In this document: piece by piece, positions 10,214-26,847 of the stretch
Position numbering within the stretch: position 1 is the first letter of the stretch
How the letters are laid out: every line of letters begins with the position of its first letter
From: an uncultured Candidatus Saccharibacteria bacterium
Lineage (GTDB): Bacteria; Patescibacteriota; Minisyncoccia; Phycocordibacterales; UBA9973
NCBI GenBank assembly: GCA_964454285.1
Contig: CAYVSW010000001.1
Location: 1-50,006 of the forward strand
Length of the DNA: 50,006 bases
Direction: 5' to 3'
Notes under the pieces: generated by a model
What the model was told of the DNA's origin: nothing
What the model saw: the letters and a program-made list of their open reading frames with translations, nothing else
The model's database searches: none
Program-made: the position numbers and the translations under genes

Positions 10214-10221
10214 ATTTATTA

Positions 10222-10249: not shown

Positions 10250-10260
10250 ACTAAAAAATA

Positions 10261-10773: not shown

Positions 10774-10829
10774 GATATGGGTTGCTCAGTATAGTATATA
10801 TAGAGCAACCTATTTTTTTTGCCAAATAA

Positions 10830-10858
10830 TTGAAAAAAAGAGAGTTTTGCGCTATAGT
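10830..10858 (+). promoter_or_regulatory. Promoter of tRNA-Gln copy 1 (TTGAAA-17-TATAGT)
   Basis: ttgaaa at 10830-10835, tatagt at 10853-10858, 14 nt before the tRNA. Confidence 0.5.
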
Positions 10859-10872
10859 GGTACGGTAATTAT

Positions 10873-10946
10873 TGGGGTGTCGTCTAATGGTAGGACAACG
10901 GTTTCTGGTACCGTTTATTGAGGTTCGAGTCCTTGCACCCCAGCCA
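10873..10946 (+). tRNA. tRNA-Gln (CUG), copy 1, CCA encoded
   Basis: Acceptor TGGGGTG/CACCCCA, anticodon stem ACGGT/ACCGT with loop TTCTGGT, T loop TTCGAGT, 3' GCCA. Confidence 0.9.
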
Positions 10947-11037
10947 ACACGAGCTAGCACGAGACGCGTCATAAAAACGCCCGCAAGACTACTTCTTAGT
11001 AAAACTATACTTATATTTCATACCTGCTGAGAGTAGT

Positions 11038-11087
11038 AATGAAATAACAAAAAGTACCTAGAAATGGGTACTTTTTGTTATTTCATT
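11038..11087. repeat. Perfect 21-bp inverted repeat (hairpin, 8-nt loop) at the island edge
   Basis: aatgaaataacaaaaagtacc-tagaaatg-ggtactttttgttatttcatt. Confidence 0.85.
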
Positions 11088-11168
11088 AAAGTGCGATATC
11101 ATTAAATTAGAAATCGTTGTTGTGTTGTGGGTCTTACTTTTTTATTAAGATTATTTTTTATATTATAT

Positions 11169-14100
11169 ATGCCTAAGAAAGCAGTTACTTTTTTAAAATC
11201 ATTTGCTAGTGTACTCACAATTTTCAGTCTTTTATTAACTCCTGTAAGTCTTGCGTTTGCGCAAGAAGTACCAAAAATTGAAGTTATTTCTTCTGAAGAA
11301 CTTCAAACAGATATATCAACCCCTATATTTGATACAGGAAATACAGTTGATATAACAGCAGAAACACTGACTGATGAAATAAAAACTCTTTCAGATCCAA
11401 ATAAATATGACAATGATTATTTAGATAAAGCATATCTTGATCCTAATAGTCCCTTTTATGATCCAGAACATAAAGAACCCGAGGATATTACCCAAAGTAA
11501 TGACGACACAACAAAAGATTCTGATAAACAAATAGCTTCAAGAAGTGCCACTGTTAGTCAGAATACTTTAATTTTAAACAGCAATACACAACGCGACACT
11601 ATTCGCCCAGAAATTGATCAAACTACTGGTGCGCTTGTATATAACTATCCTATAGAGACACCTGACGGTATTAATGGTTTAAACCCAAAATTAAGACTCA
11701 TTTACAATTCTCAGAATACAAAAAATGATTCTGTATATGGATATGGATGGTCAAGTAATATTCCTTATATTGAACGAATAAATAAGCATGGTACAGATCA
11801 GCTTTATACAGGAACTTATGACGATTATGTATCGTCAACTTTTGGTGAGCTTGTAAAAAACACCAGTACTCAGTATGTTCCAAAGTCAGCATCAGATATT
11901 GTTAACTTTTCTTTTAATAGTAATGTTTGGACATATACTGATAAACAAGGAACTGTTTATACTTATGGTGGGACATCGGCTTCTCGCCAAGATGATCCAG
12001 GAAACTCATCACACATTTCTAAGTGGATGTTGAGTTCAATAACTGACTCAGATGGGAATAGTATTACCTATACCTATTTGAAGGATCAGGGTCAGATATA
12101 TCCACAAATAATTAATTATGGAATCTATGAACTTGGTTTTAATCTCCAAGCACGTACTGATGTTACTGATAGTTATGCAAAAGGATTTTTAGTAAATACA
12201 AGATTTGTTCTTGGTGGAATTTCTTTGCGTAAGGTAACAAGTCCAACTTCTGCACCAACTACACAAGCGAACATGCTAGTTGTTGGAGGAGGCGGTGGTG
12301 GAGGAGCTGGAGGATCTAATAGAGGGCATTATGGAGGAGGGGGTGCAGGTGGATATAAAGCGTTTACTAATCAAGTGATTGTTCCTGCAACAGCATATCC
12401 AATTGTAATTGGCGATGGTGGTAATGGAAATTATAATGGACAGGGATCAAATGGAGGTAATACAACATTTAATAATATTACTGCAACAGGCGGTGGTGGT
12501 GGAGCGACTTATAATTCAAATGGTAGTAATGGTGGATCTGGCGGCGGCGGAGGTTCAGGTATTGGAGGAAACGCAAATCTGTATGAAGGTAATGATGGTG
12601 GAGCAGGTGCTACATATGCAGGTGGTGGCGGCGGAGGTAGTGGTTCTACGGGTAGTAGTGGTAGTGGTTCTGGTGGAACAGGTGGTACTGGTACGCTAAA
12701 TTCAATAAATGGATCTTCTGTTTATTACGCAGCAGGTGGCGGCGGCGGAGCACGAACTGGCGGCGGTGGAACGGGAGGTACTGGCGGTGGTGGAAATGGT
12801 GGATCTACTGGCCCCGGAGGATCTGCTACAGGGTATGGATCAGGTGGAGGTGGTGCTGGTTGGTATAATTATTCTGGTGGAAATGGTAGTTCTGGAATTG
12901 TGATTATTTCATATAAGACAGATGGTAGTGATGGAATTGATTCTTCATTATCTACAGGTGGAACAAAAACTACTTCTGGTTCTTATACTATTCATACATT
13001 CACAAGTAATGGCACATTAAATCTTATCCCAATTGCTCCAAGTGGATCAACCCTTCTTAAAAATTATGCAATTACATATACAACAGGACATAATGGTGTA
13101 CGAGCAGTACTTTCTTCAATTACTCCAAGTGCATATGATATAAATAATACCCTTACTACATTACCTTCGACTTCATTTACATATAACAAAGCGTCTTCAG
13201 GTGTTGCAACATATAGTTCAAGTCCTTCAATTTCTGGAATGTTCCCGGGAACTATAAATAACGGAGTTGTTCTTGGTGATGTAAATGGAGATGCCTATAC
13301 CGATATTATCAAATCATATGATTACTATGGGTATAGTAATGTAGGAAATTTTACTGATCACGCAGTTTATACGTTCAACCCAGTAACAGATACCTATAGT
13401 ACAAGTTCTTATACTATACCTACTGATATAATTAATTTTATACAAAATGCAGGTTCAAAATATGATGGCGGAACTCGAGTAGTTGATCTCGATGGTAATA
13501 TGGCTCCAGACCTTGTCAGAACTCCATATTACAATCCAACCAATAGTACTGCTTCCGCTGAACAGCATAATGGAACGGGATGGACTCATTTAACAAGTGG
13601 TTCTCCTTCGTATTATCCACCATATGCATCAAACCCGTTTTATACAGTATTCTCTGGTGATTTCAATGGCGATGGATTAACTGATTACATGCAGGATGTA
13701 CAAGCATGGCCGGCCACAACACCAACTACAAGTCTGTCGGTTAACAACGGTTCTTCCTTTACTACAAGTGGATCTACGTTCACAGGAACACATACATTTA
13801 ATACAGGAGATGATAGATGGTTAATGTTTGATCTTAATGGAGACGGCTTGGATGATTTAATAAAAGCTGATACTACAATACCGTGTAGCGGAACTACAAC
13901 ATATGATCAGCAAGTATATATAAACAACGGAACAACATGGGTGCGTGATTATTCTTACCAACTTCCGCAGTACTTTACAATTTACAATATCGGTTGTTAT
14001 TCGTCGTCTCGATTACCAATAGAAATTGGTGACTTCAATGGTGATGGTCTAACTGATATTATGGATATCAACGCTCAAAGTCTCTATATCAATCAAGGTA

Positions 14101-17100
14101 AGAGTTTTAGTGTTATTGGAAACCCAGGAGTAGGATTTTATAACTCTATGGCCGGCGCGTCAGCTGCTTGTACTAATTGCTCAAACCCATATCTAATTTA
14201 CGATATTAATGCGGATGGTTCACCAGATATTATCAATAATACTGGAACTTGGATGTGGGATAACACCATAACAACACCGACTGATTTAATGTCAGCTATT
14301 ACTCTTCCAGCAGGAGGTTTAATGGCTGTGACATATCAATCAAGCCCTAAATATGAAGATGGTAGTGGAAACTCATTAAACCCAACCAATCCAGTATTTT
14401 TGCAGACAGTAAAGAGTATTGCGACAACCGATCCTGTTACAAGTACAACTACTACAACAAATTACGAATATGCAGGCGGATCATATTATTACAATACGCC
14501 ATTTGATAGAAAATTTGCTGGCTTTGAAAAAGTTACAGAAATACGTCCTGATAGTACAAAGGTTGTTAATTACCATCTCCAAGGAAATGGTACAAACAGT
14601 TCATATTATGAGTACTCAGATAATGTTGGAAAGATCGGGTATGTCTATAGAACAGATGTGCTTGATACTAGTAATGCATTAGTTTCTCGTACAACAACCA
14701 AATACGATTCAGCTAATCCTGTGACAGGCGCATACTTTGTATACCCAACACAAACAGTCAGTGAAAATAGTGGGGTCAATACTGCGAAAACATACAGCTA
14801 CAACATCACAACAGGCACACTCACAAGCGCCGTCGATTATGGAATTGTCACTGTTACCGATCCACTCACATTTACTGACACAGGCACAGACAAAAAAACA
14901 ACCAACTATACCTATGCAACCAATGGAACTATCTATAAAGTTTCAAACCAGACAACACTTGATCAATCAAGCGCAAAGGTAAATGAGACTAATCTATACT
15001 ACGACAATCAAACGCTTGGTACTGTTATAAAAGGAAATAATACTAAAACAGAGCAATGGAAGGTTGGTACTACGTATGTAAACACTCAAAAGTCATACAG
15101 TACATATGGTAATGTCCTTACTGCAACAGACGAGCGAGGAAAAGTAACTGCTTACGCATATGATAGTTATAACCTCTATCCTATAACCGTTACCGACCCA
15201 TTAACTCGAACAACTCAGTACGCCTATGACTACAACACAGGAAAGCCAACACAGATAACTGATCAAAATGGTTATATCTACCAAACATCATATGATGGTT
15301 TTGGACGAGTACTTGAGCAAAAAGTTCCTGACCTTGCGACTCCATCTACTCTCGTAACAAAGACAACATACAGCTACACTAATACCCCAAACAATGTTTC
15401 AACCTACAAGACTGATTATCTTGATGGATCAACTACAATTGATAGCTATCAGTACTTTGATAGTCTCGGAAGACTAATTCAAGATCGTAGTGAAGCCGAA
15501 GTTTCTGGTACCTTTAATGTTAAGGATGTTACTTACAACAATGTTGGACTACTACAAAGTGAATCAATACGATACACAGGAAGTGGATCTGCTCGTACAG
15601 CCCCAACAACAAATACAACACTCTATAACACCTATACCTATGATCAGCTCAATCGAATACTGACAAGTGTAAATGCTCTCGGTACAACGAGTTATGTCTA
15701 TACAGGACTCAAAACTGCGATTACTGATGCAAATGGAAAAGTGAAGAATTACTACAACGATGCCTATGGCAATTTGGTAAAGGTAGAAGAAATCAATGCT
15801 GGTTCAACATACACCACAACATATACATGGAATCTCAATAATAAACTTACCAACATCACCGATGCACTCGCTAATGTTCGAAACTTCACTTATGACGGTC
15901 TTGGACGAAGACTCACTGCACAAGATCTTCATGCCTCAGCTGATACAACATTTGGTACTTGGACATATACGTATGATGATGCAGGAAATCTCACCCAGAC
16001 GCTTGATCCAAAGAGTCAAACGGTTAACTACACCTACGACGACCTCAATCGAGTGCTTACTGAAGACTACACAGGGCAAGCCGGTATTGAAGTTACCTAC
16101 ACCTACGATGTTGGAACGGGTAATCTTGGAAAGCTCACGAGTGTTGTAAATCCTGCAAGTACGAGAGCGTACATCTATAACTCAAACGGTGGTTTGAAAC
16201 AAGAAACAGATACACTCAATTCGGTAAATTACGTAACAACATACGATTACGATCGACAAGGTAACCAAGTTACTATTACCAATCCAGATAACTCACAAGT
16301 AAAGTACACCTACAATACTGCTGGACTGCTTGAACAAGTACAAAGAAAAGAATCAACTGATGGATCGTTCATCAACGTCATTACAAATTTTGACTATAAC
16401 CCTGATGGAAAGATTGTCACAACAACAAATGCGAACAGCACAACTACAACAAATACCTATGATGCGACCAAGCTATATCGATTAACTCACAAAGTCACTA
16501 CAGGTCCAGGTGCAGGTGGTACTCCAACAACAGTATCATTCTTCCCACAAGCAGGAGACGGTATGGTCACTTCAAATGCGTCAGCAACATGGGCAACCAT
16601 ACATGATGGCACTACAGGATCTGCTGCTGCCGCTACAGCGACAACATTTAATGTTGACTCAGGTAAATCATCTTCAACAAACTACAAGATTGAGCGTGGG
16701 TTCCTTGCATTCGATACTTCTTCACTTCCAGACAATGCAGTGATTAGTAGTGCAAAACTAAAACTTATCCCTAACTCAAAATTAAATAATGATAACGATG
16801 GAGATGATTGGATAACGGTAACTCAAGGTACCCAAGCAAGCCCTACAACACTCGGAACTGCTGATTACAACAAAGCAGGTCTAGCAACACTTCCTGTAGA
16901 AGGCATCTACAATACAGAGCGAAAAGATATCACTAACATAACTACAGGATTGTATCTTGCATTCAATTTGAACCCAACAGGTAAAACATGGATCTCTACG
17001 ACAGGGTCAACGTTACTTGGTCTTCGTGAAGGACACGATGCTATTAACAGTGCATTTACCGGTACTTCTGGTCAGTATGATCAAGTGATATTTAGATCAG

Positions 17101-18689
17101 GAGAATATACTGGCACCACAAGTGACCCAGTACTTGAAGTTACTTACTACACCACCACTCCTGCTCCTACAACAATCCAAGATCTTACCTATACCTATGA
17201 CAACGTCGGCAATATCACTCAAATAGTTGACGCGTCAGGTACCGATACTGCAAAGACTATTGCATACAGCTATGATGATCTCTACAGACTACTCTCTGCT
17301 ACCATCACAGGAGCTGTAAATGGGGATAACAGTACCAAGACATATATCTACAACGCGATTGGTAACATGCTTACTTCTGACGCAGGTACCTATACCTATG
17401 CAGGTACGGGTTATGCGAACCCACACGCTGTCACAGGGCTCGCTGGGTCAACCTATACCTACGACAATAGTGGAAACCTCACAGGAGACGGTACATGGAC
17501 ATATACCTGGGATTACAACAACCAGCTTCTCCAGAGCTCAAAGAGTGGAGTCACAAGCTCATATACCTACGATGCTAAAGGGCAGAGAGTTAAACAAGTC
17601 TCTCCAACATTTGGTACTGTCTATTATCCAACTCTTTCCTATAGTACAGATGGCACCACACCAACGAAACAAATAATGGTAGGAGACATATCTATAGGAA
17701 CAGTGAAAGGTACTGGTGCAAGTGCTGTTATGTACTATAACCATGCAGATCAATTGCAAAGTACAAACATCGTCACAAACCAATCTGGTCAAATGGTTGA
17801 GCTCATGGATTATCAACCGTATGGAGCTATGAGAATAGATTGGCAGTACAATAACAACTTTGATCAGTCTAAAAAATACATCAACAGAGAATACGATAGA
17901 GACAGCCAGCTTCTGTATCTTCAAGCGAGGTATATGAATCCAGGTATTGCGAAGTTCTTGAGTCAGGATCCAACACATTTGTCTATAGGAAATCCGAGCG
18001 CTGTTCAATCTTTGACTGGTAAGGATATGAAGATATATCTTTCTGATCCACAACAATTCAATTCTTATGCATATGCTCGAAACAATCCTATAGTTAATAG
18101 TGACCCAACGGGCAACGCAACATATATATGGAATAATGGTGCCGGAATGTCAGGAATTGATACTTGGGATACGAATACTTACTATCAATCTAGTGACCGA
18201 GCATTACTTCAAAAAAATGCTGTTGAAATGAGTTCAGCGGGTAATTACGCAAACCTCGGTGCATTTTATGATCGTGTACGCAATGGTGCACAGTGGGATT
18301 ATAAGAATCAGGATCGAGCCTATTATTTCTATGGAAGTGATCTTGTTGATAAAGAAACATTTGGAAATAGAAATTATGGGTACACTGGTACAGCAGCGGG
18401 TTTTGGGAAGACATTACTAAAAAGTGCTGCGGGTTATGCCCAAGTACGATCAGGTAATGCTCAATTAAAAGATGTAAGAACATTTTTTGACGATCCAAAG
18501 GATACGGCTAATATCCAGATTGGAATTTTGTCCTACAATAATGGCAACAGAGTAACTCCTGCGAGTGGGTTACAGATAGGTAAGCAGACTACAGTAAATA
18601 GTAAGGTTCTAAATTCGGTTTATCGACAGTTTCAAAGTATACAAAAAAAGATTAGTAACCTTGCTAAGAAATTAGGAAAATCAAATTAA
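11169..18689 (+). CDS. Giant secreted RHS/YD-repeat polymorphic toxin, Tc-toxin B/C fusion-like. Order: signal peptide, SpvB-like N-domain, Gly-rich insert, FG-GAP/VCBS repeats, RHS shell with an inserted domain, Rhs core, C-terminal toxin tip.
   Basis: Signal peptide MPKKAVTFLKSFASVLTIFSLLLTPVSLAFA/QE. SpvB-like motif TGALVYNYPIETPDGINGLNPKLRLIYNSQ...GYGWS. Six D-x-[ND]-x-D-G-x-x-D repeats (GDVNGDAYTDII ... YDINADGSPDII). Dozens of YD repeats (YxYDxxGxL). Core YLQARYMNPGIAKFLSQDP...NSYAYARNNPIVNSDPTGN. ATG 11169 is preferred to GTG 11127. Confidence 0.9.
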   Translation: MPKKAVTFLKSFASVLTIFSLLLTPVSLAFAQEVPKIEVISSEELQTDISTPIFDTGNTVDITAETLTDEIKTLSDPNKYDNDYLDKAYLDPNSPFYDPEHKEPEDITQSNDDTTKDSDKQIASRSATVSQNTLILNSNTQRDTIRPEIDQTTGALVYNYPIETPDGINGLNPKLRLIYNSQNTKNDSVYGYGWSSNIPYIERINKHGTDQLYTGTYDDYVSSTFGELVKNTSTQYVPKSASDIVNFSFNSNVWTYTDKQGTVYTYGGTSASRQDDPGNSSHISKWMLSSITDSDGNSITYTYLKDQGQIYPQIINYGIYELGFNLQARTDVTDSYAKGFLVNTRFVLGGISLRKVTSPTSAPTTQANMLVVGGGGGGGAGGSNRGHYGGGGAGGYKAFTNQVIVPATAYPIVIGDGGNGNYNGQGSNGGNTTFNNITATGGGGGATYNSNGSNGGSGGGGGSGIGGNANLYEGNDGGAGATYAGGGGGGSGSTGSSGSGSGGTGGTGTLNSINGSSVYYAAGGGGGARTGGGGTGGTGGGGNGGSTGPGGSATGYGSGGGGAGWYNYSGGNGSSGIVIISYKTDGSDGIDSSLSTGGTKTTSGSYTIHTFTSNGTLNLIPIAPSGSTLLKNYAITYTTGHNGVRAVLSSITPSAYDINNTLTTLPSTSFTYNKASSGVATYSSSPSISGMFPGTINNGVVLGDVNGDAYTDIIKSYDYYGYSNVGNFTDHAVYTFNPVTDTYSTSSYTIPTDIINFIQNAGSKYDGGTRVVDLDGNMAPDLVRTPYYNPTNSTASAEQHNGTGWTHLTSGSPSYYPPYASNPFYTVFSGDFNGDGLTDYMQDVQAWPATTPTTSLSVNNGSSFTTSGSTFTGTHTFNTGDDRWLMFDLNGDGLDDLIKADTTIPCSGTTTYDQQVYINNGTTWVRDYSYQLPQYFTIYNIGCYSSSRLPIEIGDFNGDGLTDIMDINAQSLYINQGKSFSVIGNPGVGFYNSMAGASAACTNCSNPYLIYDINADGSPDIINNTGTWMWDNTITTPTDLMSAITLPAGGLMAVTYQSSPKYEDGSGNSLNPTNPVFLQTVKSIATTDPVTSTTTTTNYEYAGGSYYYNTPFDRKFAGFEKVTEIRPDSTKVVNYHLQGNGTNSSYYEYSDNVGKIGYVYRTDVLDTSNALVSRTTTKYDSANPVTGAYFVYPTQTVSENSGVNTAKTYSYNITTGTLTSAVDYGIVTVTDPLTFTDTGTDKKTTNYTYATNGTIYKVSNQTTLDQSSAKVNETNLYYDNQTLGTVIKGNNTKTEQWKVGTTYVNTQKSYSTYGNVLTATDERGKVTAYAYDSYNLYPITVTDPLTRTTQYAYDYNTGKPTQITDQNGYIYQTSYDGFGRVLEQKVPDLATPSTLVTKTTYSYTNTPNNVSTYKTDYLDGSTTIDSYQYFDSLGRLIQDRSEAEVSGTFNVKDVTYNNVGLLQSESIRYTGSGSARTAPTTNTTLYNTYTYDQLNRILTSVNALGTTSYVYTGLKTAITDANGKVKNYYNDAYGNLVKVEEINAGSTYTTTYTWNLNNKLTNITDALANVRNFTYDGLGRRLTAQDLHASADTTFGTWTYTYDDAGNLTQTLDPKSQTVNYTYDDLNRVLTEDYTGQAGIEVTYTYDVGTGNLGKLTSVVNPASTRAYIYNSNGGLKQETDTLNSVNYVTTYDYDRQGNQVTITNPDNSQVKYTYNTAGLLEQVQRKESTDGSFINVITNFDYNPDGKIVTTTNANSTTTTNTYDATKLYRLTHKVTTGPGAGGTPTTVSFFPQAGDGMVTSNASATWATIHDGTTGSAAAATATTFNVDSGKSSSTNYKIERGFLAFDTSSLPDNAVISSAKLKLIPNSKLNNDNDGDDWITVTQGTQASPTTLGTADYNKAGLATLPVEGIYNTERKDITNITTGLYLAFNLNPTGKTWISTTGSTLLGLREGHDAINSAFTGTSGQYDQVIFRSGEYTGTTSDPVLEVTYYTTTPAPTTIQDLTYTYDNVGNITQIVDASGTDTAKTIAYSYDDLYRLLSATITGAVNGDNSTKTYIYNAIGNMLTSDAGTYTYAGTGYANPHAVTGLAGSTYTYDNSGNLTGDGTWTYTWDYNNQLLQSSKSGVTSSYTYDAKGQRVKQVSPTFGTVYYPTLSYSTDGTTPTKQIMVGDISIGTVKGTGASAVMYYNHADQLQSTNIVTNQSGQMVELMDYQPYGAMRIDWQYNNNFDQSKKYINREYDRDSQLLYLQARYMNPGIAKFLSQDPTHLSIGNPSAVQSLTGKDMKIYLSDPQQFNSYAYARNNPIVNSDPTGNATYIWNNGAGMSGIDTWDTNTYYQSSDRALLQKNAVEMSSAGNYANLGAFYDRVRNGAQWDYKNQDRAYYFYGSDLVDKETFGNRNYGYTGTAAGFGKTLLKSAAGYAQVRSGNAQLKDVRTFFDDPKDTANIQIGILSYNNGNRVTPASGLQIGKQTTVNSKVLNSVYRQFQSIQKKISNLAKKLGKSN
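17515..17572 (+). repeat. 58-nt segment of the main rhs gene repeated at the 5' junction of the downstream orphan
   Basis: Matches 19320-19377 with 2 mismatches; both encode NNQLLQSSKSGVTSSYTYD. Confidence 0.9.
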
Positions 18690-18695
18690 ATCAAA

Positions 18696-19259: not shown

Positions 19260-19270
19260 CTCCACTATAA

Positions 19271-19924
19271 GTCAACATTCTTTTAAGAAAAAAGTGTTAC
19301 AATCACACTAGTTCTTTAAACAACAACCAGCTCCTCCAGAGCTCAAAGAGTGGAGTCACAAGTTCATATACCTACGACGATCTCAACCGACTTCTGACTG
19401 CAACAATCACCTCAGTACCAACAGGACAGACTACCTATACACAAACCTATGTATATAATGCAATTGGAAATATAACCTCTGGTCCAGTTGGAACATATGT
19501 TTATAACGGTTCAAGTGGTTCAAACTGGGCTAACCCTCATGCAGCGACATCTATAAATGGTGTTACAAATACCTACGACAAGGATGGAAACAATACAGGA
19601 GACGGAACACTCACAAATACATGGAACTATAAAGACCAACTTACAAGAACTGTAAAAGGTGCAACAACAATTGACTATCTATATGACTATACTGGAGACC
19701 GTTCATCATATACTGACGGCACTACAACTACTGATTATGCCAACAAGTACTATAACTATGATGGTGCAAAGAAAGTTAAACAAATATTTGCTGGCAATCA
19801 ACTAGTTGGAACAATAGAGACAGTAGGAGCTACAGTATCTCCATACTATGTTCATACAGATACTGTTCTCGGTTCAAATGTAATATCAGATGGAACTGGT
19901 GCAAAGAATCAACTCCTTGACTAT
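19271..19924 (+). pseudogene. Start-less in-frame 5' part of the orphan Rhs cassette (YD repeats)
   Basis: Same frame as 19925-20767 and open back to TAA 19268-19270. No ATG, GTG or TTG codon in 218 codons. Encodes YD repeats paralogous to main-gene residues around nt 17275-17600. Confidence 0.75.
19320..19377 (+). repeat. Orphan-side copy of the 58-nt rhs homology
   Basis: See 17515-17572. Confidence 0.9.
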
Positions 19925-20767
19925 ATGCCGTTTGGAAAAGTGAGAATTAATCAGCAAGCAACCAGTTTCAACGAGAAAAATCAATTTATAGGACAGGAGT
20001 ATGACGAAGACACACAATTATCCTATCTTAACGCTCGTTACTATAATGGGGCTAGGGGTCAGTTTATAAGCCAAGATCCAGTATTCTGGGAGATTGGACA
20101 GTCTAAAGAAGGAATGAGTGCTCTATCTGATCCTCAATCAATGAATAGTTATTCCTATGCAGGAAATAATCCGATTAAAAATTCGGATCCTGACGGAAGA
20201 TGGTATAAGGAAGTTCTAACTGGTCAGCAATCCTGGTCTAGTTTCTCGGGAGAAGTAGGTCAAGCAACCCAATACATGGGTAGTGGGTGGCAGACAGCAA
20301 TGGATCATCCTGTTGCAGCAGGGGCAGCAGTTGGAGTTGGATCAGGATTAGCGGCATATGGAGCCGCCGCAGGACTTACTGCTCTTAGTACTCAATATCT
20401 TGGTGGAGCAGGTACGGCATGTGTAGCACTATGCAATCAAAATGGACAAAAACTAGTTGAGCAAGGAATATCAAATCTACAACAGTTACCAAGGGTGGTC
20501 ACTGCAACAGAAAAAATGGTAGAGCGGGGTCCAAATAAGGATATAGTTGGAATTAATAATTTCCTACAACAAGCACAAAAGGGTACAGCTTACTTGGATA
20601 ACAAAACAGGTAATATAAATATCTTTTCTAAGATAGGGGATAGTGCTAGGTACACAAGAACTACTCTTAATCCAGAGGGGAATAAAATTATTTCAGCTGG
20701 TATTAATCAGGCAAGAAATGTTATTAATGGTATTTCAAACGGACGCTTTACTAAGATTACTAAATAA
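19925..20767 (+). CDS. RHS repeat-associated core plus an alternative C-terminal toxin tip (orphan module; ORF as callable from its first ATG)
   Basis: Core motifs QEYDEDTQLSYLNARYYNGARGQFISQDP...NSYSYAGNNPIKNSDPDGR, followed by a 189-aa tip unrelated to the main tip and containing a Gly/Ala-rich hydrophobic stretch VAAGAAVGVGSGLAAYGAAAGLTAL. Confidence 0.8.
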   Translation: MPFGKVRINQQATSFNEKNQFIGQEYDEDTQLSYLNARYYNGARGQFISQDPVFWEIGQSKEGMSALSDPQSMNSYSYAGNNPIKNSDPDGRWYKEVLTGQQSWSSFSGEVGQATQYMGSGWQTAMDHPVAAGAAVGVGSGLAAYGAAAGLTALSTQYLGGAGTACVALCNQNGQKLVEQGISNLQQLPRVVTATEKMVERGPNKDIVGINNFLQQAQKGTAYLDNKTGNINIFSKIGDSARYTRTTLNPEGNKIISAGINQARNVINGISNGRFTKITK

Positions 20768-20784
20768 TATAAAATTAAAACAAC

Positions 20785-21078
20785 ATGAAAAACTTTATTG
20801 ACCTCATAGAATCATTCATAGAAGGAAAAATTGACTTCAAAGAATTTGATAAAAATTGGCAAAAATTATATATAGGCTCATCAGATAAAGGTGAACTCTA
20901 TGAGGCTTTGTCAGAATCAGAGAAGGATTTTCTTGATGAGATACATGATAAAGAGGATTTAGCTACCAAAGATGAAAAGGAATTACAGGATTTGAAAAAA
21001 TACAACTTTATTTCTGTAAAGGAATTTAAAGAGTGGCTAAAAGATTATAAACAAAAGAATATTGAAATCTGGAAATAG
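20785..21078 (+). CDS. Putative immunity protein for the orphan toxin (small acidic helical protein)
   Basis: Lies 17 nt after the orphan stop. The N-terminal pattern LIESFIEGKIDFKEFDKNWQKLY recalls colicin-type (ImmD-like) immunity proteins, from memory. Confidence 0.55.
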   Translation: MKNFIDLIESFIEGKIDFKEFDKNWQKLYIGSSDKGELYEALSESEKDFLDEIHDKEDLATKDEKELQDLKKYNFISVKEFKEWLKDYKQKNIEIWK

Positions 21079-21082
21079 CTTT

Positions 21083-21319
21083 TTAGTCTTCATTCGATTT
21101 GGTTAGTTGACGTTCTGCTTTATTAATCTCTTTCTCTATTGAAAAACTGATTTTTTCTTGTTCTTGAGAGTCAGAATTTTCGGTTGTTTTTAGTTGTAAT
21201 GGTACTGAGCCTTTCAAAATAACTTTTCCATGGTTGTAAATAATTTCTTCAACGAAGTCTAAGACAAATCTTCGCTTGTTATCAAAAGTATTACACTTAT
21301 CAAATCGGGGGAATAATGA
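21083..21319 (-). pseudogene. Possible remnant of the C-terminal end of a large serine recombinase
   Basis: Minus-frame open stretch without a start: ...FDNKRRFVLDFVEEIIYNHGKVILKGSVPLQLKTTENS...ERQLTKSNED*. The pattern F(E/D)xKRxxLxxx(V/I)xxIxxxxxGxVxIxGxIP is one I recall from the tails of large serine recombinases. Confidence 0.3.
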
Positions 21320-21354
21320 TTATTATTACTATTAAATTTTTGAGTTCATAAGAT

Positions 21355-21600
21355 ATGGATACAGGATATTGGCAACCATTATCAGGTTTAGTCATAGGTT
21401 TATTATTAGTAATCCTATTCTGTCTTCTTTATACGCGCTGGAGAAAAAAGCCTGTTCAATGGATTACAAAGCATATATTTCGAAGCCAGCTCATGAGCGA
21501 AAAGTCTGCAACTGGTCTTTATAATGTAATGATAAGTTTTATACCAGTGATAGGTGTAATATGGATTTTTTCAGCACTTCTGTATTTGAGGGTTCTGTAA
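21355..21600 (+). CDS. Hypothetical small membrane protein (2 TM)
   Basis: 81-aa ORF with two hydrophobic helices. Confidence 0.4.
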   Translation: MDTGYWQPLSGLVIGLLLVILFCLLYTRWRKKPVQWITKHIFRSQLMSEKSATGLYNVMISFIPVIGVIWIFSALLYLRVL

Positions 21601-21803
21601 AAAGTGAAAAAATAAGCACTAATGATAGTTGGGTAGTAAATACAAGTATAAGTGATGTATATGATTTCAATCCTGTAAATCCTCAAACATACAAGGGTGC
21701 AATTACAAAATTACCCGCTGGACAGGCACATAAAGATCAAGGCAGTGGTATTTTAAGTAATTACAATGTAAATATTCAATTTAGTGATAAAATTAACAAA
21801 TAG
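21561..21803 (+). CDS. Hypothetical 80-aa protein, possibly the remnant tip of a third toxin module
   Basis: Short ORF (frame opens only at 21525), followed 2 nt later by a membrane-anchored ORF in the same arrangement as the two toxin/immunity pairs upstream. Confidence 0.3.
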   Translation: MDFFSTSVFEGSVKSEKISTNDSWVVNTSISDVYDFNPVNPQTYKGAITKLPAGQAHKDQGSGILSNYNVNIQFSDKINK

Positions 21804-21805
21804 TT

Positions 21806-22321
21806 ATGAAAAATAAAAAGATACCATATGTATTAATAATACCTTTACTGATAATAGCAATTTTTGCTTTTAGTTATTATTATTTTATCAGAATTCCAAA
21901 TAAAAAAATTGCAGAAAGATGTATTCAATATGATCGTGAATGGGCGAATTTGGAAGATTGCTATGGTTTAATTTCACTTCGTTATGGTTGGGATATTGAT
22001 TATTATTACTTATTGGATCACATTCATGATTACGAAATTGCGAGAATCTATAACCTTGATCAATACATTTACGAAAACAATAAAATTTTCGTGATCAATC
22101 GCAAGACCATAGAAAACAGCTCATCTAACGGAATTAAGACTACCTATTATCAGGAACTGTTTCAGAACGGTAAGTTGTCAGATAATCCCTATAGTGAAAT
22201 TTCAGACATACCAACTTTCCTGGTTGTAGATACTGTTTCTGGTGAAGTACAAGCATATAAAAATATCACTGATGTTCCGAGTGATCAACAGAGCTATTTT
22301 ACCAAAATCAATAACCAGTAG
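21806..22321 (+). CDS. Hypothetical membrane-anchored protein (candidate orphan immunity protein)
   Basis: N-terminal TM segment IPYVLIIPLLIIAIFAFSYYYFI, then a Tyr/Asp-rich soluble domain. Confidence 0.5.
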   Translation: MKNKKIPYVLIIPLLIIAIFAFSYYYFIRIPNKKIAERCIQYDREWANLEDCYGLISLRYGWDIDYYYLLDHIHDYEIARIYNLDQYIYENNKIFVINRKTIENSSSNGIKTTYYQELFQNGKLSDNPYSEISDIPTFLVVDTVSGEVQAYKNITDVPSDQQSYFTKINNQ

Positions 22322-22572
22322 AAAACTAATGAAAGTAAAAATACTACTAAGAAAGATGTTATTAATGTCATGAATACCAAGTCTATAAAAGAAGTAAATA
22401 GCAATAAGATTGTAAGAAAACGTTTAGCTAGAATTTTATCTAGAGAATGTTTTCGCGATATGAAGAAATAGATTTTATGGAGATGACCCAAGAGATCAGC
22501 CTGATATTATGAGGCGTATTAATTTATATAGAAATATATAAAGTTATTTATAAAAAAATATTAATCACAATA

Positions 22573-22839
22573 ATGGATGAAAATACTATCATTAGAAGAA
22601 TAGAAGATACTGTACACCAAGTAGTGCACGAACAAACTGATCATCTCGGGCGAGGTCGTGTTAAGCGTACATTCACAAACGACCTCGCGCATAAACTCAA
22701 ACTGCTATTTGAGACAGGTGACATCGCTGTTGATCCTTTTTATAACCGGCATGTGCAAGCGACAAAACGGTTAGACGGTAAGGTTATTGAACTGGATATC
22801 GCTAATGATTTAAATATTTACTATTATAATATGCACTAG
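22573..22839 (+). CDS. Hypothetical protein, possibly a truncated fragment
   Basis: 88-aa ORF that ends abruptly after ...GKVIELDIANDL. No downstream continuation found. Confidence 0.35.
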   Translation: MDENTIIRRIEDTVHQVVHEQTDHLGRGRVKRTFTNDLAHKLKLLFETGDIAVDPFYNRHVQATKRLDGKVIELDIANDLNIYYYNMH

Positions 22840-22874
22840 AAATTTGATTAAAAAACTATGTTATACTCCCTCCT

Positions 22875-23201
22875 ATGAAACAAATTCTAGTACTACATGG
22901 AGGAGATAGTTTTGGGACAGAGGAGGAATATATTTCTTTTTTGAAGAATTTTGAGATAGAAAATCTCGATTATTTCAAAAGTAAACGATGGAAAGAAAAC
23001 CTACAGGCAGATCTGGGGCCAGACTTTGAAGTTATTGCGTCGCGGATGCCAAATGCATTTAATGCGCGCTATGAGGAGTGGAAGATCTGGTTTGAAAAGA
23101 TCCTCCCTTTGATGGACGATAGATGTGTACTCCTCGGGCATTCGCTCGGAGGGACTTTTCTTGCAAAAACAATAGAAAAACGAATTTCTTATCAAAAATA
23201 A
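22875..23201 (+). pseudogene. Truncated alpha/beta serine hydrolase (YdeN/RBBP9-like); only the N-terminal half is present
   Basis: Nucleophile elbow LLGHSLGG is present, but the ORF stops 17 codons later, so the Asp/His half is missing. A full-length family member lies at 27024-27578. Confidence 0.6.
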
Positions 23202-23332
23202 AGAATGGTAATAGAGTGTCACTTTTGTCACTTTTTGAGGTGCTCAAGATACGTTGATATGATATAGTAAGAATTATTGGAATAGCCTTGCAGTGCAATG
23301 AATCAAAAGGTTCTAGCTCAAGGACGCCAGCA

Positions 23333-23372
23333 CATACAAAAAAACATAGCAAACGCTATGTTTTTTTGTATG
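23333..23372. terminator. Perfect 18-bp hairpin (AAAC loop)
   Basis: catacaaaaaaacatagc-aaac-gctatgtttttttgtatg. Confidence 0.6.
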
Positions 23373-23571
23373 CCTCTGGCTGTTTAGGACGAGAAAGGCG
23401 TAGCCGTTCTTGCGGGGCAAGAATATAGGCGAGGCGGGGTCGCGAACACTTTATATTTTTGGAGTTTTACGAACAAAAATATTTAGTGATTTGTGACCGA
23501 GTCCCTGTCCCGCAGAACGCAAAAATACCTACTAAAAGTATACTTTCTTTACTTTTCGAGTACATTAGTTT

Positions 23572-23594
23572 ATAATGCAAGTTACTTGCATTAT
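23572..23594. promoter_or_regulatory. Perfect 11-1-11 palindrome; candidate Fur/Zur-family operator overlapping the -10 box and both candidate start codons
   Basis: ATAATGCAAGT-T-ACTTGCATTAT. The tataat at 23571-23576 overlaps its left arm. Confidence 0.65.
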
Positions 23595-23922
23595 GAGAAC
23601 CAATGTATACAAAGAACAGATATTAAGCCTACTCAGAAAAAAACATCTTCTGACTATCGCTGAAATTCACAAAGCAATCCCAGACGCTGATTATTCGACG
23701 ATTTTTCGCAATGTCGAACAATTGCTTTCTGATAAACAAATCAAAAGAATTATGATTGACAGCAAGTCAATTGCATACGAATCAGCTCATGAGAGCCACG
23801 ATCACTTTATTTGTAATGACTGTGGAAAAGTTGAAGAAATTCACGTTCCCCACACCTCAATCAAAGGTCGAAAGATTGACGATATTACCGTGCGAGGAAG
23901 TTGTAATGAGTGCGATAAATAA
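23593..23922 (+). CDS. zur: Fur-family metalloregulator, probably Zur
   Basis: HESHDHFICNDCGKVEEI (HxHxxCxxC) plus a C-terminal CNEC. Sits in an operon with a COG0523 GTPase. Alternative ATG at 23575. Confidence 0.8.
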   Translation: MRTNVYKEQILSLLRKKHLLTIAEIHKAIPDADYSTIFRNVEQLLSDKQIKRIMIDSKSIAYESAHESHDHFICNDCGKVEEIHVPHTSIKGRKIDDITVRGSCNECDK

Positions 23923-25006
23923 TATGAATAAAACAACCCTTAAAAAACAAATACCCGTTACTGTACTTTCTGGATTTCTTGGAGCGGGTAAAACAACCGT
24001 CTTAAATTACATACTTGCAAATCGACAAGGACTTAAGGTTGCGGTGATAGTAAACGATATGTCAGAAGTGAATATTGATGTAGAGTTGGTAAAAAACAAT
24101 GAGGTAGCCCTTGATCGCACAGAAGAAAAATTGATCGAGATGTCTAATGGCTGTATCTGCTGTACTCTTCGAGAAGATCTTCTAAAAGAGGTATCAAAGC
24201 TAGCATCAGAAGGAAAATTTGATGCAATCTTCATCGAATCAAGTGGAATTTCAGAACCACTTCCTGTTGCTGAAACATTCACGTTTGAAGATGAGAATGG
24301 AAAAATGCTTATGGATATTGCCCGACTCGATACTATGGTGACTGTCGTAGATGCAAAACATTTTCTGTTGAACTACGAAAATGACAAAAATCTCTCTGAT
24401 GAAAAGATTGGTGTATCAGATGACGATACTCGAACCATAGTTCACCTCCTTACCGATCAGGTCGAATTTGCCGATGTTATTTTACTTTCAAAAGTTGATA
24501 TCACCCCAAAAGAAGAAGTTGCAAAGATTAAAGCTATCATCAAAACACTTAATCCTGGAGCAAAGATATACGAGATTGAAAAAGGAAAAATTGAATTAGA
24601 CAAGATACTCAACACCGGTCTATTCACACTTAAAAACGCATCAAACAACGCTGGTTGGCTCAAGGAAATGCGAGGAGAACACATTCCAGAAACGGAGGAA
24701 TATGGAATCTCGAGTTTTGTATTCAAAGCCAATCGTCCATTTTCTCATACAAAGCTCCTGGATATTCTTAACGGTAACAAATTGAAGGGTGTAGTCAGAT
24801 CAAAAGGTTTCGCATGGACAGACGAAAGACCGAACATGGCACTAATGTGGAGTCATGCAGGCAATATTATCAACCTTGATCCCTATGGATACTGGAATAA
24901 GAGAAAAGACGGTTCATTAGATGCAGAGCAGAAAATTGTCTTCATCGGCATCGAAATGGACAAAGAATATATATTAGATGAACTTAATCAAGCACTTATT
25001 GCATAA
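23906..25006 (+). CDS. COG0523-family (CobW/YjiA/ZigA-like) metallochaperone GTPase
   Basis: Walker A GFLGAGKTT, metal motif GCICCT, ESSGISEP, SKVD, CobW C-terminal domain. ATG 23906 (GAGGAAG 8 nt upstream) overlaps the zur end. Alternative ATG 23924. Confidence 0.88.
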   Translation: MSAINNMNKTTLKKQIPVTVLSGFLGAGKTTVLNYILANRQGLKVAVIVNDMSEVNIDVELVKNNEVALDRTEEKLIEMSNGCICCTLREDLLKEVSKLASEGKFDAIFIESSGISEPLPVAETFTFEDENGKMLMDIARLDTMVTVVDAKHFLLNYENDKNLSDEKIGVSDDDTRTIVHLLTDQVEFADVILLSKVDITPKEEVAKIKAIIKTLNPGAKIYEIEKGKIELDKILNTGLFTLKNASNNAGWLKEMRGEHIPETEEYGISSFVFKANRPFSHTKLLDILNGNKLKGVVRSKGFAWTDERPNMALMWSHAGNIINLDPYGYWNKRKDGSLDAEQKIVFIGIEMDKEYILDELNQALIA

Positions 25007-25010
25007 AAAT

Positions 25011-25859
25011 ATGATAATTGGAATTTTAGGAAAAGGAGGTGTTGGAAAATCAACAATTTCATCACAAATTGCACTCTATCTTGCAAGTCAAAAGAAGAAA
25101 ATTCTTGCAATTGATGCTGATTATAATATGGATTTGGTATTCAATATTACAGGTGGAAATATTCCTGAGCAGTTGCCCTATTTTGGAACACAAAAATCAG
25201 CTATTAAATTTTTCCTCTCCCTTGAGAAGGGTACAAAATTTTCTGATGGGGTGCTTGGTTTTAATGAAGCACAATTTCATTTCTCAGAACCATCAGTTGA
25301 TAGTTTTACTGAATCAGTAGCTACTCCCATCAAGAACCATCTTTCAGTAATTGTTTGTGGACCAGAAACAGAAGACATTTTATACGGCCAAGGTTGTGGG
25401 CATGCATTATCAGCTCCTCTTAAGCTCTATTTACCACTACTGCATGTTGCGCCAAATTGTCATGTGGTGATCGATGAAAAGGCAGGTTCTGATGGTGCTA
25501 ATAGTGGAATCATTTCAGGGTGTGACATAGTTTATATTGTTACAGATCCATCACTTCATGGAACAAAAACAGCACTTCAGATTGCTCGCCTTGCAGAATT
25601 TTTTGAAACACCTTATAAATTTATTGCAAATAAGGTTCAAACACCTGAAGATCTTACGTACATTTCAGAACGATTAAATGTGGATGTTCATTTATCATTT
25701 ATATTTGATTCTGAACTTAGTAAAAATCCAGGACAAGTTTCTGCTAAAAACGTTAAATTCTTTGAGCAAATAGATAATCTTACAATTGACTCAGATAATC
25801 AAAATAGATTAGACCGCTCTCAGCGCAAATTCAAAATTGCTCAAGAAAGATACTCTTAG
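25011..25859 (+). CDS. ParA/MinD/CooC-family P-loop ATPase (deviant Walker A)
   Basis: ILGKGGVGKST, AIDADYNMDL. ATG 25011 is 4 nt after the upstream stop. Confidence 0.75.
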   Translation: MIIGILGKGGVGKSTISSQIALYLASQKKKILAIDADYNMDLVFNITGGNIPEQLPYFGTQKSAIKFFLSLEKGTKFSDGVLGFNEAQFHFSEPSVDSFTESVATPIKNHLSVIVCGPETEDILYGQGCGHALSAPLKLYLPLLHVAPNCHVVIDEKAGSDGANSGIISGCDIVYIVTDPSLHGTKTALQIARLAEFFETPYKFIANKVQTPEDLTYISERLNVDVHLSFIFDSELSKNPGQVSAKNVKFFEQIDNLTIDSDNQNRLDRSQRKFKIAQERYS

Positions 25860-25953
25860 TTTGTAATCACCTCGCATGTTTTCTTCTCGAAAGGAATCAT
25901 GTATGGTGACTATAATCACCGTGTTCTTTTTTCACAATTTAAAAATTTTAATC

Positions 25954-26370
25954 ATGAATTGCACAGACGCAAGAATGGTGTGGTCTCACCCAGAAGGACC
26001 AATCAAAGGAGTACAACAAGTATTTCCTGAAGCATGGAAACGTATCCATGCAATTGCTCATCATTTTGCAGACAAGAAAACAAATCCGTATAACGATTTG
26101 GTTCAAGCGGATGCAAAGGAGATGGGAGTTAATACTCCGTTTTATGTTGAACATGCGCTGGATGGTGATCCTGTTGCAGAGCAAATCCACGGAATCCTTG
26201 GAGATGTAGCAATGGGAAAAGTGATATCCAAATGGATGTCTGACCATTGTAAGGCACCCATGGTGCTTGCTAATGTATGCTGTAATGGTTGCACCTCCTA
26301 TCGACCAGATATGCCAGATGAGGAAATCAACAAAATGCAGCTTGCTGCAATCAAAAACAATCCTATATAG
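25954..26370 (+). CDS. Hypothetical His/Cys-containing protein (CCNGC motif), last gene of the Zur-linked cluster
   Basis: 138-aa ORF from ATG 25954 (the track start 25876 adds a hydrophobic, unlikely extension). Contains AIAHHF, DHC and VCCNGC. Confidence 0.5.
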   Translation: MNCTDARMVWSHPEGPIKGVQQVFPEAWKRIHAIAHHFADKKTNPYNDLVQADAKEMGVNTPFYVEHALDGDPVAEQIHGILGDVAMGKVISKWMSDHCKAPMVLANVCCNGCTSYRPDMPDEEINKMQLAAIKNNPI

Positions 26371-26403
26371 GTAATTGTTGTTATTTTGATAGCAAGCAAA
26401 AAC

Positions 26404-26431
26404 CCGGACAAAAACAATGTCCGGTTTTTTA
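26404..26431 (+). terminator. Rho-independent terminator
   Basis: ccggaca-aaaacaa-tgtccgg followed by tttttt. Confidence 0.65.
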
Positions 26432-26466
26432 TTTTTTTGACCTATTATTTCAAATCTCTTGTTTGA

Positions 26467-26649
26467 TCTAAAAAAGCAAAGAATGTCATATTCATATGCC
26501 TTCGAGGAAACACAAGTAGACTAGCAACTTATAAAGCAGAACAACTCGGCATCAAGGCAATAAATCTCAAGGGTGGAGATGCGGAATGGAGCAGGCTGAA
26601 TTTGCCTCGAATAATATCAATGTCCTGTATATTGAAGTACGACCTTTAA
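26467..26649 (+). pseudogene. Rhodanese-domain remnant (C-terminal about 45 aa, no start codon)
   Basis: Frame 1 reads KNVIFICLRGNTSRLATYKAEQLGIKAINLKGGDAEWSRLNLP, which is an active-site loop C-x-R-G-x-x-S followed by the L.GG...W end. An in-frame stop lies directly upstream at 26464-26466. Confidence 0.55.
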
Positions 26650-26669
26650 ATTAGATAATTTAAAACGAT

Positions 26670-26700
26670 AAAAACACCTCTCATTACGAGAGGTGTTTTT
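26670..26700. terminator. Bidirectional terminator hairpin (13-bp stem)
   Basis: aaaaacacctctc-attac-gagaggtgttttt, downstream of tRNA-Gln copy 2 on the minus strand. Confidence 0.7.
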
Positions 26701-26738
26701 ATCTTAAAACTAGCTATCTTTGAGCTAGCTCAAGTTTG

Positions 26739-26809
26739 CTGGGGTGCAAGGACTCGAACCTCAATAGACGGTACCAGAAACCGTAGTCCTACCATTAGAC
26801 GACACCCCA
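26739..26809 (-). tRNA. tRNA-Gln (CUG), copy 2, inverted relative to copy 1
   Basis: The reverse complement matches 10873-10943 at 69 of 71 positions. The two differences are at tRNA positions 26 and 44. CCA is not encoded. Confidence 0.9.
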
Positions 26810-26819
26810 ATATATTTTT

Positions 26820-26847
26820 ATTATATGCGAAGAATGCTTTTTTTCAA
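26820..26847 (-). promoter_or_regulatory. Promoter of tRNA-Gln copy 2 (TTGAAA-16-TATAAT on the minus strand)
   Basis: Minus strand reads ttgaaaaaaagcattcttcgcatataat. It shares the opening ttgaaaaaaag with the copy-1 promoter. Confidence 0.5.

Follow-up and report, generated by a model that had tools for sequence, protein, structure and literature searches.

Two near-identical tRNA genes that face each other across a block of accessory DNA could be the ends of a mobile element, the arms of an invertible segment, or neither. Which of these applies is the question raised by positions 1 to 50,006 (forward strand) of contig CAYVSW010000001.1 in assembly GCA_964454285.1, from an uncultured Candidatus Saccharibacteria bacterium (GTDB lineage Patescibacteriota; Minisyncoccia; Phycocordibacterales; UBA9973). 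This 50,006-nt stretch, referred to below as the window, carries two inverted tRNA-Gln(CUG) genes: copy A on the plus strand near 10.9 kb and copy B on the minus strand near 26.8 kb. An earlier note, made from the sequence alone, had described the 15.8 kb between them as an AT-rich island bracketed by the pair. It proposed that the segment could invert between the repeats, or that one copy is the duplicated attachment target of an integrated element. We favour another reading and hold it to be probable, though by no means certain: the locus is a long-lived accessory-gene slot that has been rewritten repeatedly, and the tRNA pair does not represent the ends of a mobile element.

By this account, tRNA-Gln(CUG) would be a constant resident of the slot throughout the family, lying between ftsE-ftsX and the M3-peptidase/ABC-F genes. 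The DNA 3' of copy A would have been replaced many times, and site-specific integration probably took place at least once, because a large serine recombinase abuts the tRNA gene in one relative (L006). In the window the slot would have been loaded with three things, namely an RHS/WapA-type toxin set, decayed gene fragments and a portable zur-cobW module. The pair itself would be a by-product of events at the hot spot, be it an inverted duplication, an inversion or the acquisition of DNA from a close relative, with the redundant copy B drifting slightly thereafter. We infer both the order of these events and the expression of both tRNAs.

Extent and conservation of the slot

The DNA between the two tRNA genes is accessory and AT-rich, as had been proposed: its GC content is 0.371, compared to 0.453 in the core genes to the left and 0.425 further to the right, and the relative L001 lacks it at the corresponding position. 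The tRNA genes, however, are not its boundaries. Just outside copy A, 1.1 kb of DNA (9743-10869) is no less foreign, with a GC content of 0.303, and the DNA beyond copy B (26810-29201) has a GC content of 0.392. GC content at third codon positions (GC3) is 0.40-0.57 in core genes and 0.19-0.36 in every gene from 9756 through the end of a hydrolase gene at 27578; this hydrolase, just beyond copy B, has a GC3 of 0.26. The tetranucleotide correlation to the core drops from about 0.89 to 0.23-0.6 over 11-23 kb, and recovers gradually past 27-29 kb. A maximum-likelihood analysis placed GC change points at 9702 (the ftsX stop codon) and at 27639 (weak) or 31311, and none at 10.87 or 26.8 kb. Because the foreign composition starts at the ftsX stop and fades gradually past copy B, neither tRNA gene marks an edge. 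The windowed GC and k-mer comparison that the earlier note had suggested as a check therefore bears out the foreign character of the region, whereas no compositional shift coincides with the tRNA genes, an outcome that the note had named as a refutation and that here counts against its boundaries. Both tRNA genes lie within the foreign block. GC3 skew was uninformative as a signal of inversion.

Synteny gives the same picture. The closest relatives by ftsX are metagenome-assembled genomes (MAGs) of Paceibacterota/Minisyncoccia/Parcubacteria (Patescibacteria, the candidate phyla radiation), and the nearest species-representative genome, L001, has 76% amino-acid identity in ftsX. In the window the left flank reads NUDIX, DEAD-box helicase, DUF2784, tRNA-Thr, BipA, methyltransferase, release factor 2 (prfB), ftsE and ftsX, and the right flank of the slot is an M3 peptidase gene followed by an ABC-F ATPase gene. 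L001 retains NUDIX-DEAD-BipA-methyltransferase-prfB-ftsE-ftsX-tRNA-Gln(+) as well as M3-ABC-F. The earlier note had asked whether ftsX runs directly into the hydrolase and alkyltransferase-like genes in related genomes. It does not in L001, where a single tRNA-Gln, on the plus strand, begins 37 nt after ftsX, and a 5.6-kb run of unrelated genes, among them a Ser/Thr kinase, DoxX and ApbE, separates it from the M3 peptidase and ABC-F. At the nucleotide level, the homology with L001 ends at 9742 of the window, returns only over the tRNA and then resumes at 29202. Because of these breaks, the variable interval in the window is taken as 9743-29201, which extends beyond the tRNA bracket on both sides.

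Both outer parts of this interval can be followed in other genomes. The segment between ftsX and copy A is not present in L001; its two orphan open reading frames (ORFs; 9783-10184 and 10261-10773) have GC3 values of 0.30 and 0.22 and promoter-like sites of 11/12 and 12/12, and returned no Pfam or NCBIfam matches. An independent Logan contig, L005, joins ftsX to the first of these low-GC ORFs at 100% identity. An exact look-up of ftsX gave just one Logan contig, of 1.5 kb, and look-ups of the M3 peptidase and the hydrolase gave no record. On the other side, the block from 26966 to 29201 (hydrolase, alkyltransferase-like and membrane-protein genes) is shared, with insertions and deletions, by the close relative L021 and is absent from L001. 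Copy B is absent from the equivalent place in L021, and because the homology with L021 begins only at 26966, 157 bp beyond copy B, this copy lies on the variable side of the slot.

Where the window has copy B, L021 carries a degenerate tRNA-like sequence (785-869) upstream of the hydrolase. It is not a tRNA-Gln: it has the anticodon GTC, a long variable arm and a mismatched acceptor stem, and scores 36.8 bits.

More distant relatives show that the flanks persist while the interval changes. At family level (ftsX 46-59% identical), L012, L013 and L002 each carry one minus-strand tRNA-Gln(CUG), 5-7 kb downstream of ftsX; the order in L012 is ftsX, 6.7 kb, tRNA-Gln(-), 2.9 kb and the ABC-F orthologue (77% amino-acid identity), and in L013 and L002 the distance from ftsX is 5-6 kb. 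Conserved flanks (ftsX, M3/ABC-F) are thus found in L001 and L012, and the interval content differs between the window, L001, L012 and L013, as expected for a hot spot. Closer to the window, L008 and L010 (ftsX 89-91% identical) have the plus-strand copy-A tRNA after ftsX, with the L010 contig ending at nucleotide 32 of the tRNA. The DNA 3' of the tRNA in L008 is unrelated to the window and holds an ORF without known function (L008 and L021 come from the same sample series, and their contigs do not overlap). The DNA 3' of an identical copy-A tRNA therefore differs in each of four genomes: an RHS gene in the window, a Ser/Thr kinase gene in L001, a serine recombinase gene in L006 and the ORF just mentioned in L008. 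From these gene orders, the interval between ftsX and ABC-F is a conserved slot that always contains tRNA-Gln(CUG) in the relatives examined, with varying orientation, position and cargo.

The tRNA-Gln pair and its ancestry

ARAGORN identified six tRNA genes in the window, two of them tRNA-Gln(CUG), and an Rfam scan of the window returned nothing beyond six tRNAs (gathering score of the tRNA family, 29 bits; scores of the pair in Table 1). The mature 71-nt copies are equal at 69 of 71 positions, with A26/U44 in copy A and U26/C44 in copy B. On this point ARAGORN, Rfam and the alignment all agree with the earlier note, which had missed a further difference at the 3' end, where copy A encodes CCA (10944-10946) and copy B has CAA. 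The pair forms an inverted repeat of 89 nt (10870-10958 and 26724-26812, 94% complementary), in which the unbroken identity tracts are 27, 17 and 29 nt long. It is the sole long inverted repeat of the window. Beyond these 89 nt, a comparison of the flanks of copies A and B found no alignable homology except for the promoter motif.

Both copies are directed into the bracketed segment, and sigma-70-like sites were found at each, in keeping with the claim that each has a promoter of its own. Both promoters rank among the best matches in the region, in which the total count of promoter-like sites is not above that of shuffled sequences. The strong hairpin 3' of copy A is likely a terminator or insulator. 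Copy B is accepted as a tRNA by both the covariance model and ARAGORN, and has a predicted promoter and terminator. Because hairpins intervene, the tRNA promoters probably do not drive the cargo.

How do the two copies relate to those of other genomes? The 71 nt of copy A are identical in the window, L001, L006 and L008, and L010 is equal over the 32 nt that its contig retains. This invariance contrasts with the coding DNA of the window, L001, L006 and L008 genomes, which is 77-87% identical at the nucleotide level. Copy A also lies 3' of ftsX and points the same way as its counterparts in L001, L008 and L010. Judged by position and sequence, it appears to be the genus-level orthologue of the single tRNA-Gln after ftsX.

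Copy B shares every genus-specific position with copy A (69/71, compared to 58/71 with L012). A26/U44 is the state of all relatives of the A clade, and U26/C44 is unique to copy B among the nine sequences compared. Because A26/U44 is also found in L012 and L013, the two changes in copy B are derived as well as unique. A scan for the exact pattern, with any base allowed at positions 26 and 44, matched one metagenome contig (L006, of the copy-A type) and no viral contigs, so a second U26/C44 variant was not found in either set. These patterns suggest that copy B arose inside the genus-level lineage or was homogenised with copy A, and that it may now be under weaker constraint. Its minus-strand orientation, on the ABC-F side, matches that of the single copy in family-level relatives. 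The TTGAAAAAAAG...TATAxT promoter and the trailer hairpin also occur at the single tRNA-Gln of the distant relatives L012 and L002. That copies A and B have this motif in common is therefore not evidence of a recent duplication; both the motif and the hairpin are properties of this tRNA-Gln gene family.

Several points weigh against a slot that has been rewritten around a resident tRNA gene. The thermodynamic minimum-free-energy fold of copy B is not a cloverleaf, even though the covariance model accepts this copy. The closest relatives are represented only by short contigs (L007-L011) that end 0.2-1 kb after ftsX, and among the genomes examined none has an 'empty' or alternative whole slot at species level. 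The history of copy B could also have run along several lines: in-situ inverted duplication, homogenisation of an ancestral copy by gene conversion, or import with foreign DNA. Likewise, copy B may be the older minus-strand resident and copy A a duplicate placed beside ftsX, or the reverse, or copy B may have been imported from a close relative. Finally, the window itself was assembled from a metagenome, and repeats of this sort are well known for causing mis-joins.

This last point leads to an explanation in which different strains or loci were joined through their shared tRNA-Gln sequence, so that the bracket exists in no single cell. tRNA repeats of 71-89 nt are typical of the places where a MAG contig such as this one (55,107 bp) is mis-joined, the contigs of relatives fragment at exactly the tRNA locus, and the composition of the cargo differs from that of the core. 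However, each junction in the window has unique k-mers, rather than those of one collapsed repeat, because two internal positions and both flanks distinguish the copies. Low-GC accessory DNA also runs outside both tRNA genes into core genes, with support from L005 (100% identity) and L021, and core and island proteins each occur on three NCBI contigs. We consider a mis-assembly very unlikely.

The contigs L007, L009, L010 and L011, from four independent metagenomes, all run out 0.2-0.7 kb past ftsX, which suggests that those populations, too, have a repeat or differences between strains at the locus.

Could the segment instead be an invertible cassette? Homologous recombination is known to invert chromosome segments between inverted repeated genes, such as rrn operons, IS copies, and duplicated tRNA or tuf genes. 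In the same way, RecA-dependent recombination at the 89-nt repeats could flip the 15.8-kb segment, and the pair might be kept for this purpose or as handles for cassette swapping. The locus resembles those cases in having near-identical inverted genes that a flip would leave intact. At 27 and 29 nt, the longest perfect tracts come close to the shortest length on which RecA-type recombination acts in Escherichia coli, and the 94% complementary repeat flanks the segment as the only long one in the window. The orientation of tRNA-Gln is plus at genus level and minus at family level; therefore an inversion ending at this gene has happened at least once. The contigs of relatives also break at or inside the tRNA (L010 at nucleotide 32, while L006 starts 19 nt upstream), as expected for a repeat or a strain-variable junction.

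Against inversion of the present segment, the pattern scans returned only the single metagenome contig and no viral contig, and neither the other orientation nor an alternative junction was found. All the cargo genes between the tRNA genes are co-oriented with the flanking core genes. The repeats here are only 89 nt long, with perfect tracts of at most 29 nt, and such short tracts would make for a low inversion frequency. Moreover, there is no resolvase/invertase or Piv-type domain in this region of the window, which sets it apart from Hin-, Gin- and Piv-type systems. An inversion would have no apparent switch function, because it would only swap which insulated tRNA promoter faces which end; a phenotype or switch is not predictable from the locus. 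We regard an invertible cassette as unlikely, and prefer the view that the slot has been rewritten around its tRNA gene.

Table 1. Positions of the tRNA genes, associated signals and cargo features in the window
Feature	Position	Strand	Description
Low-GC insertion, ftsX to tRNA-Gln copy A	9743-10869	+	orphan ORFs 9783-10184 and 10261-10773
Promoter of tRNA-Gln copy A	10830-10858	+	TTGAAA-17-TATAGT, sigma-70-like
tRNA-Gln(CUG) copy A	10873-10946	+	ARAGORN (ctg); Rfam tRNA 55.4 bits; CCA encoded
Hairpin 3' of copy A, before the RHS gene	11038-11087	+	23-bp stem; z-score -7.9 for 10944-11090
RHS/WapA-like polymorphic toxin	11127-18689	+	ORF of 2520 aa; probable start at MPKK signal peptide near 11169; GC3 0.255
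Candidate immunity protein for Ntox44 tip	18696-19259	+	187 aa, N-terminal transmembrane segment; by position only
Orphan RHS C-terminal cassette	19283-20767	+	lacks start codon and N-terminus; different toxin tip
Putative immunity gene of orphan tip	20785-21078	+	small ORF 3' of tip
Small ORFs and gene fragments	21355-23201	+	including 21561-21803, 21806-22321 and truncated alpha/beta-hydrolase 22875-23201
Zinc-starvation-type operon	23575-26370	+	Fur-family (Zur-like) regulator, CobW/G3E GTPase, ParA/Mrp-like P-loop ATPase, unknown 138-164-aa protein (Pfam, NCBIfam)
Predicted intrinsic terminator of copy B	26667-26703	-	17-pair stem, then T-run
tRNA-Gln(CUG) copy B	26739-26809 (ARAGORN 26738-26809)	-	ARAGORN (ctg); Rfam 52.1 bits; no encoded CCA
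Promoter of tRNA-Gln copy B	26847-26820	-	TTGAAA-16-TATAAT, sigma-70-like; aligns with promoter of minus-strand tRNA-Gln in L012
Right-hand part of slot	26966-29201		alpha/beta hydrolase 27024-27578, alkyltransferase-like 27594-27911, P-loop kinase-like (-), membrane protein (-)

Possible integration at the tRNA-Gln gene

A second proposal in the earlier note was that one copy is the duplicated attachment target of an integrated element. On this reading, an integrative element or prophage remnant would have entered tRNA-Gln, with copy B as the duplicate. In the close relative L006, the tRNA-Gln of the copy-A type is used as, or adjoins, an integration site. The L006 contig opens 19 nt before the tRNA gene, where its sequence is that of the window, and diverges right after the discriminator base. 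In its segment 1-1683, a large serine recombinase gene (550 amino acids; Resolvase, Recombinase and Zn-ribbon domains) directly adjoins the 3' end of the tRNA, and its ORF ends inside the tRNA on the opposite strand. Beyond it lie a Toprim primase-like gene, an EcoRI-like restriction endonuclease gene and a D12 methylase gene. No relative of this recombinase was found in IMG/VR. A serine recombinase and an IS3-type transposase also lie near the zur-cobW module in L019, a contig that shares this module with the window.

The window itself does not carry the signature of an integrated element. For tRNA-linked islands, as catalogued by Islander, this signature consists of an intact tRNA gene, a displaced fragment of it in the same orientation and an on-board integrase, and fragments in the opposite orientation are rejected (PMC4383910). 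Here an intact tRNA gene stands at one end (copy A, 55.4 bits). The second copy, however, is not a fragment: it is full length and inverted, is served by a separate promoter and terminator, and has flanking sequence unlike that of copy A. No other tRNA-Gln fragments were found in the window at up to 1-3 mismatches. A Pfam/NCBIfam search of the ORFs in 9.7-29.2 kb detected no recombinase, transposase or phage gene or remnant, and when the serine recombinases of L006 and L019 and the IS3 transposase were compared with the window by tblastn, there were only chance matches, plus a trivial overlap of the tail of the L006 ORF with the tRNA. The compositional and synteny edges are outside both tRNA genes (9742 and 29202 by comparison with L001, 26966 with L021), and the cargo is a mosaic of independently distributed modules. 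The idea of a duplicated attachment target thus fails on the full-length, inverted second copy and on the lack of a fragment and an integrase, and we consider an integrated mobile element most improbable.

The comparison with known tRNA-linked islands (pheV, leuX and selC of Enterobacteria; Islander, PMC4383910) remains useful. As in those islands, a tRNA gene anchors a strain-variable, low-GC accessory block, the content varies among close relatives, and an element bearing a recombinase abuts the same tRNA in L006. The window differs in having neither an integrase nor a same-orientation fragment at the far end, in its full-length inverted second copy, and in its edges, which lie outside the tRNA genes. 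In addition, the L006 enzyme is a serine rather than a tyrosine recombinase, and according to the Islander study serine integrases were not known to target tRNA genes (PMC4383910). A literature search on inverted tRNA pairs flanking islands found nothing relevant.

A different arrangement is found between ftsX and tRNA-Gln in L008 (1108-1570) and L010 (3117-3499). There, the first 27 nt of the tRNA are split into nucleotides 1-10, 11-18 and 19-27 by GC-rich hairpin insertions, and the split fragment is followed by an 81-amino-acid GIY-YIG nuclease ORF (Pfam, 2.3e-15), with the motif AATAATATTGGGGTGTCG recurring on both sides. Going by its layout, this looks like a partial tRNA duplication tied to a free-standing, homing-endonuclease-like GIY-YIG gene.

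It is conceivable that tRNA-Gln(CUG) is actively targeted, as a recombination site, by enzymes like the L006 serine recombinase and the GIY-YIG protein of L008 and L010, the latter leaving partial tRNA duplications, and that the inverted pair provides homology or attachment handles for inverting or swapping the toxin and zinc cassette between strains. The candidate phyla radiation would then have a system of exchangeable cassettes bracketed by tRNA genes. We rate this as decidedly unlikely, and return to the preferred view, in which the slot has been filled piecemeal.

Cargo modules and their wider meaning

The contents of the slot were described correctly in the earlier note: Pfam, NCBIfam and the translations confirm the RHS toxin and its orphan cassettes, as well as gene fragments and an operon with Zur and CobW genes (Table 1). 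The main RHS protein contains SpvB, FG-GAP, glycine-rich and RHS-repeat domains (PF05593, 1.2e-25) and a C-terminal Ntox44 domain (9.7e-14). RHS repeats and an RHS-associated core thus precede a variable C-terminal toxin, the arrangement that characterises RHS polymorphic toxins. A small ORF lies 3' of each toxin tip; the one after the Ntox44 tip (18696-19259), a candidate immunity gene, gave no family matches in Pfam or NCBIfam. The orphan cassette (TIGR03696, 2.6e-18) aligns to residues 2017-2329 of the main RHS protein with 42% amino-acid identity, and translations of both contain the motif NNPIxNSDPxG. At the nucleotide level, a 58-nt tract of the orphan cassette (19320-19377) is 97% identical to 17515-17572 of the main gene.

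The orphan tip and its putative immunity gene travel together. The tip and immunity cassette (20024-21091) is 93% identical in nucleotide sequence to L027 3168-4234 and L028 3601-4667, which belong to full-length RHS genes from two other metagenomes. Because the tips are 93% identical at the nucleotide level, while the cores are only 42-45% identical in amino-acid sequence to that of the window, the cassette has been exchanged between different RHS genes. Among the fragments that follow, 21561-21803 and 21806-22321 possibly form a further tip and immunity pair.

Two other observations concern these genes. The internal glycine-rich domain of the RHS protein (PF21722, about 220 amino acids; window 12250-12900) coincides with a spike in GC content and GC skew (+0.36) and contains short direct repeats. 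A recent duplication of the hydrolase gene across copy B was ruled out, as the truncated copy at 22875-23201 and the gene at 27024-27578 are only 27% identical.

The locus shares several features with the rhs and WapA loci of other bacteria (Rhs of E. coli and Salmonella, WapA of Bacillus subtilis; Zhang et al. 2012, PMC3482391): an RHS core, a variable C-terminal toxin and a small downstream gene, here the candidate immunity gene. It also shares a promoter-less orphan with a tract of near-identical core sequence, and the occurrence of the same tip and immunity cassette on unrelated RHS genes. It differs in its host, a Paceibacteria MAG with a small genome, in its combination of a Sec-type signal peptide with SpvB/FG-GAP and glycine-rich domains, and in having no type VI secretion context; here both toxin and immunity functions are predicted.

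The zinc-starvation-type operon has a history of its own. Its zur-cobW unit (23547-25018, about 1.44 kb) is 78-80% identical in nucleotide sequence to L019 8353-9793 and L020 2145-3619, with unrelated flanks, and in both of these contigs it adjoins genes for nicotianamine synthase and a second, longer CobW protein. On this evidence, zur-cobW appears to be a portable module. As in Zur-regulated G3E modules of the CobW/ZigA/YeiR type, a Fur-family regulator gene lies directly upstream of, and overlaps, that of the CobW GTPase, an arrangement that is widely conserved in Patescibacteria (matches with 60-89% identity). Unlike in L019 and L020, where the pairing is with nicotianamine synthase and a second CobW, the partners of the unit in the window are a ParA/Mrp-like ATPase and a protein of unknown function. 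Taken with the separate distribution of the toxin cassette, the cargo appears to be a mosaic of independently distributed modules.

Three features of the flanks stand apart from the slot itself. A very basic ORF of 43 amino acids (MAKRSTDIKKGVKSRHSHKTAKRL...) lies between the M3 peptidase and ABC-F genes (approximately 31099-31230, minus strand). It is conserved in L001 (75% nucleotide identity, approximately 13320-13450, minus strand), elsewhere in the slot, has no Pfam matches, and may encode a small protein missed by annotation. A palindromic hairpin that resembles a terminator, 3' of the M3 peptidase gene (31024-31075), matches 13031-13080 of L002, a distant Parcubacteria contig, with 84-92% identity in both orientations, which is unusually conserved for a terminator. 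In the left flank, release factor 2 (7161-8063) appears short, with approximately 290 amino acids from a start at 7192; its match to the PCRF model covers positions 76-194 and no more, and it is called at the same length in relatives.

What does this locus add? It does not overturn current understanding. It is a new instance of two known things, a tRNA-anchored hypervariable slot and an RHS locus with orphan cassettes, in an under-studied lineage. Its practical value is modest and lies in the annotation of this MAG, where one tRNA-Gln can be marked as redundant, an RHS toxin locus noted and a site that is probably fragile in assembly flagged. The most promising leads are the serine recombinase that abuts a tRNA gene, and the GIY-YIG gene with its partial tRNA duplication. 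For the biology of these organisms, the locus offers a worked example of accessory-gene organisation in a very small genome of the candidate phyla radiation, with interbacterial toxins whose tips can be swapped and a zinc-starvation module among the cargo. It also shows that an inverted, near-identical tRNA pair on either side of genes like these is no ground for inferring the ends of a mobile element.

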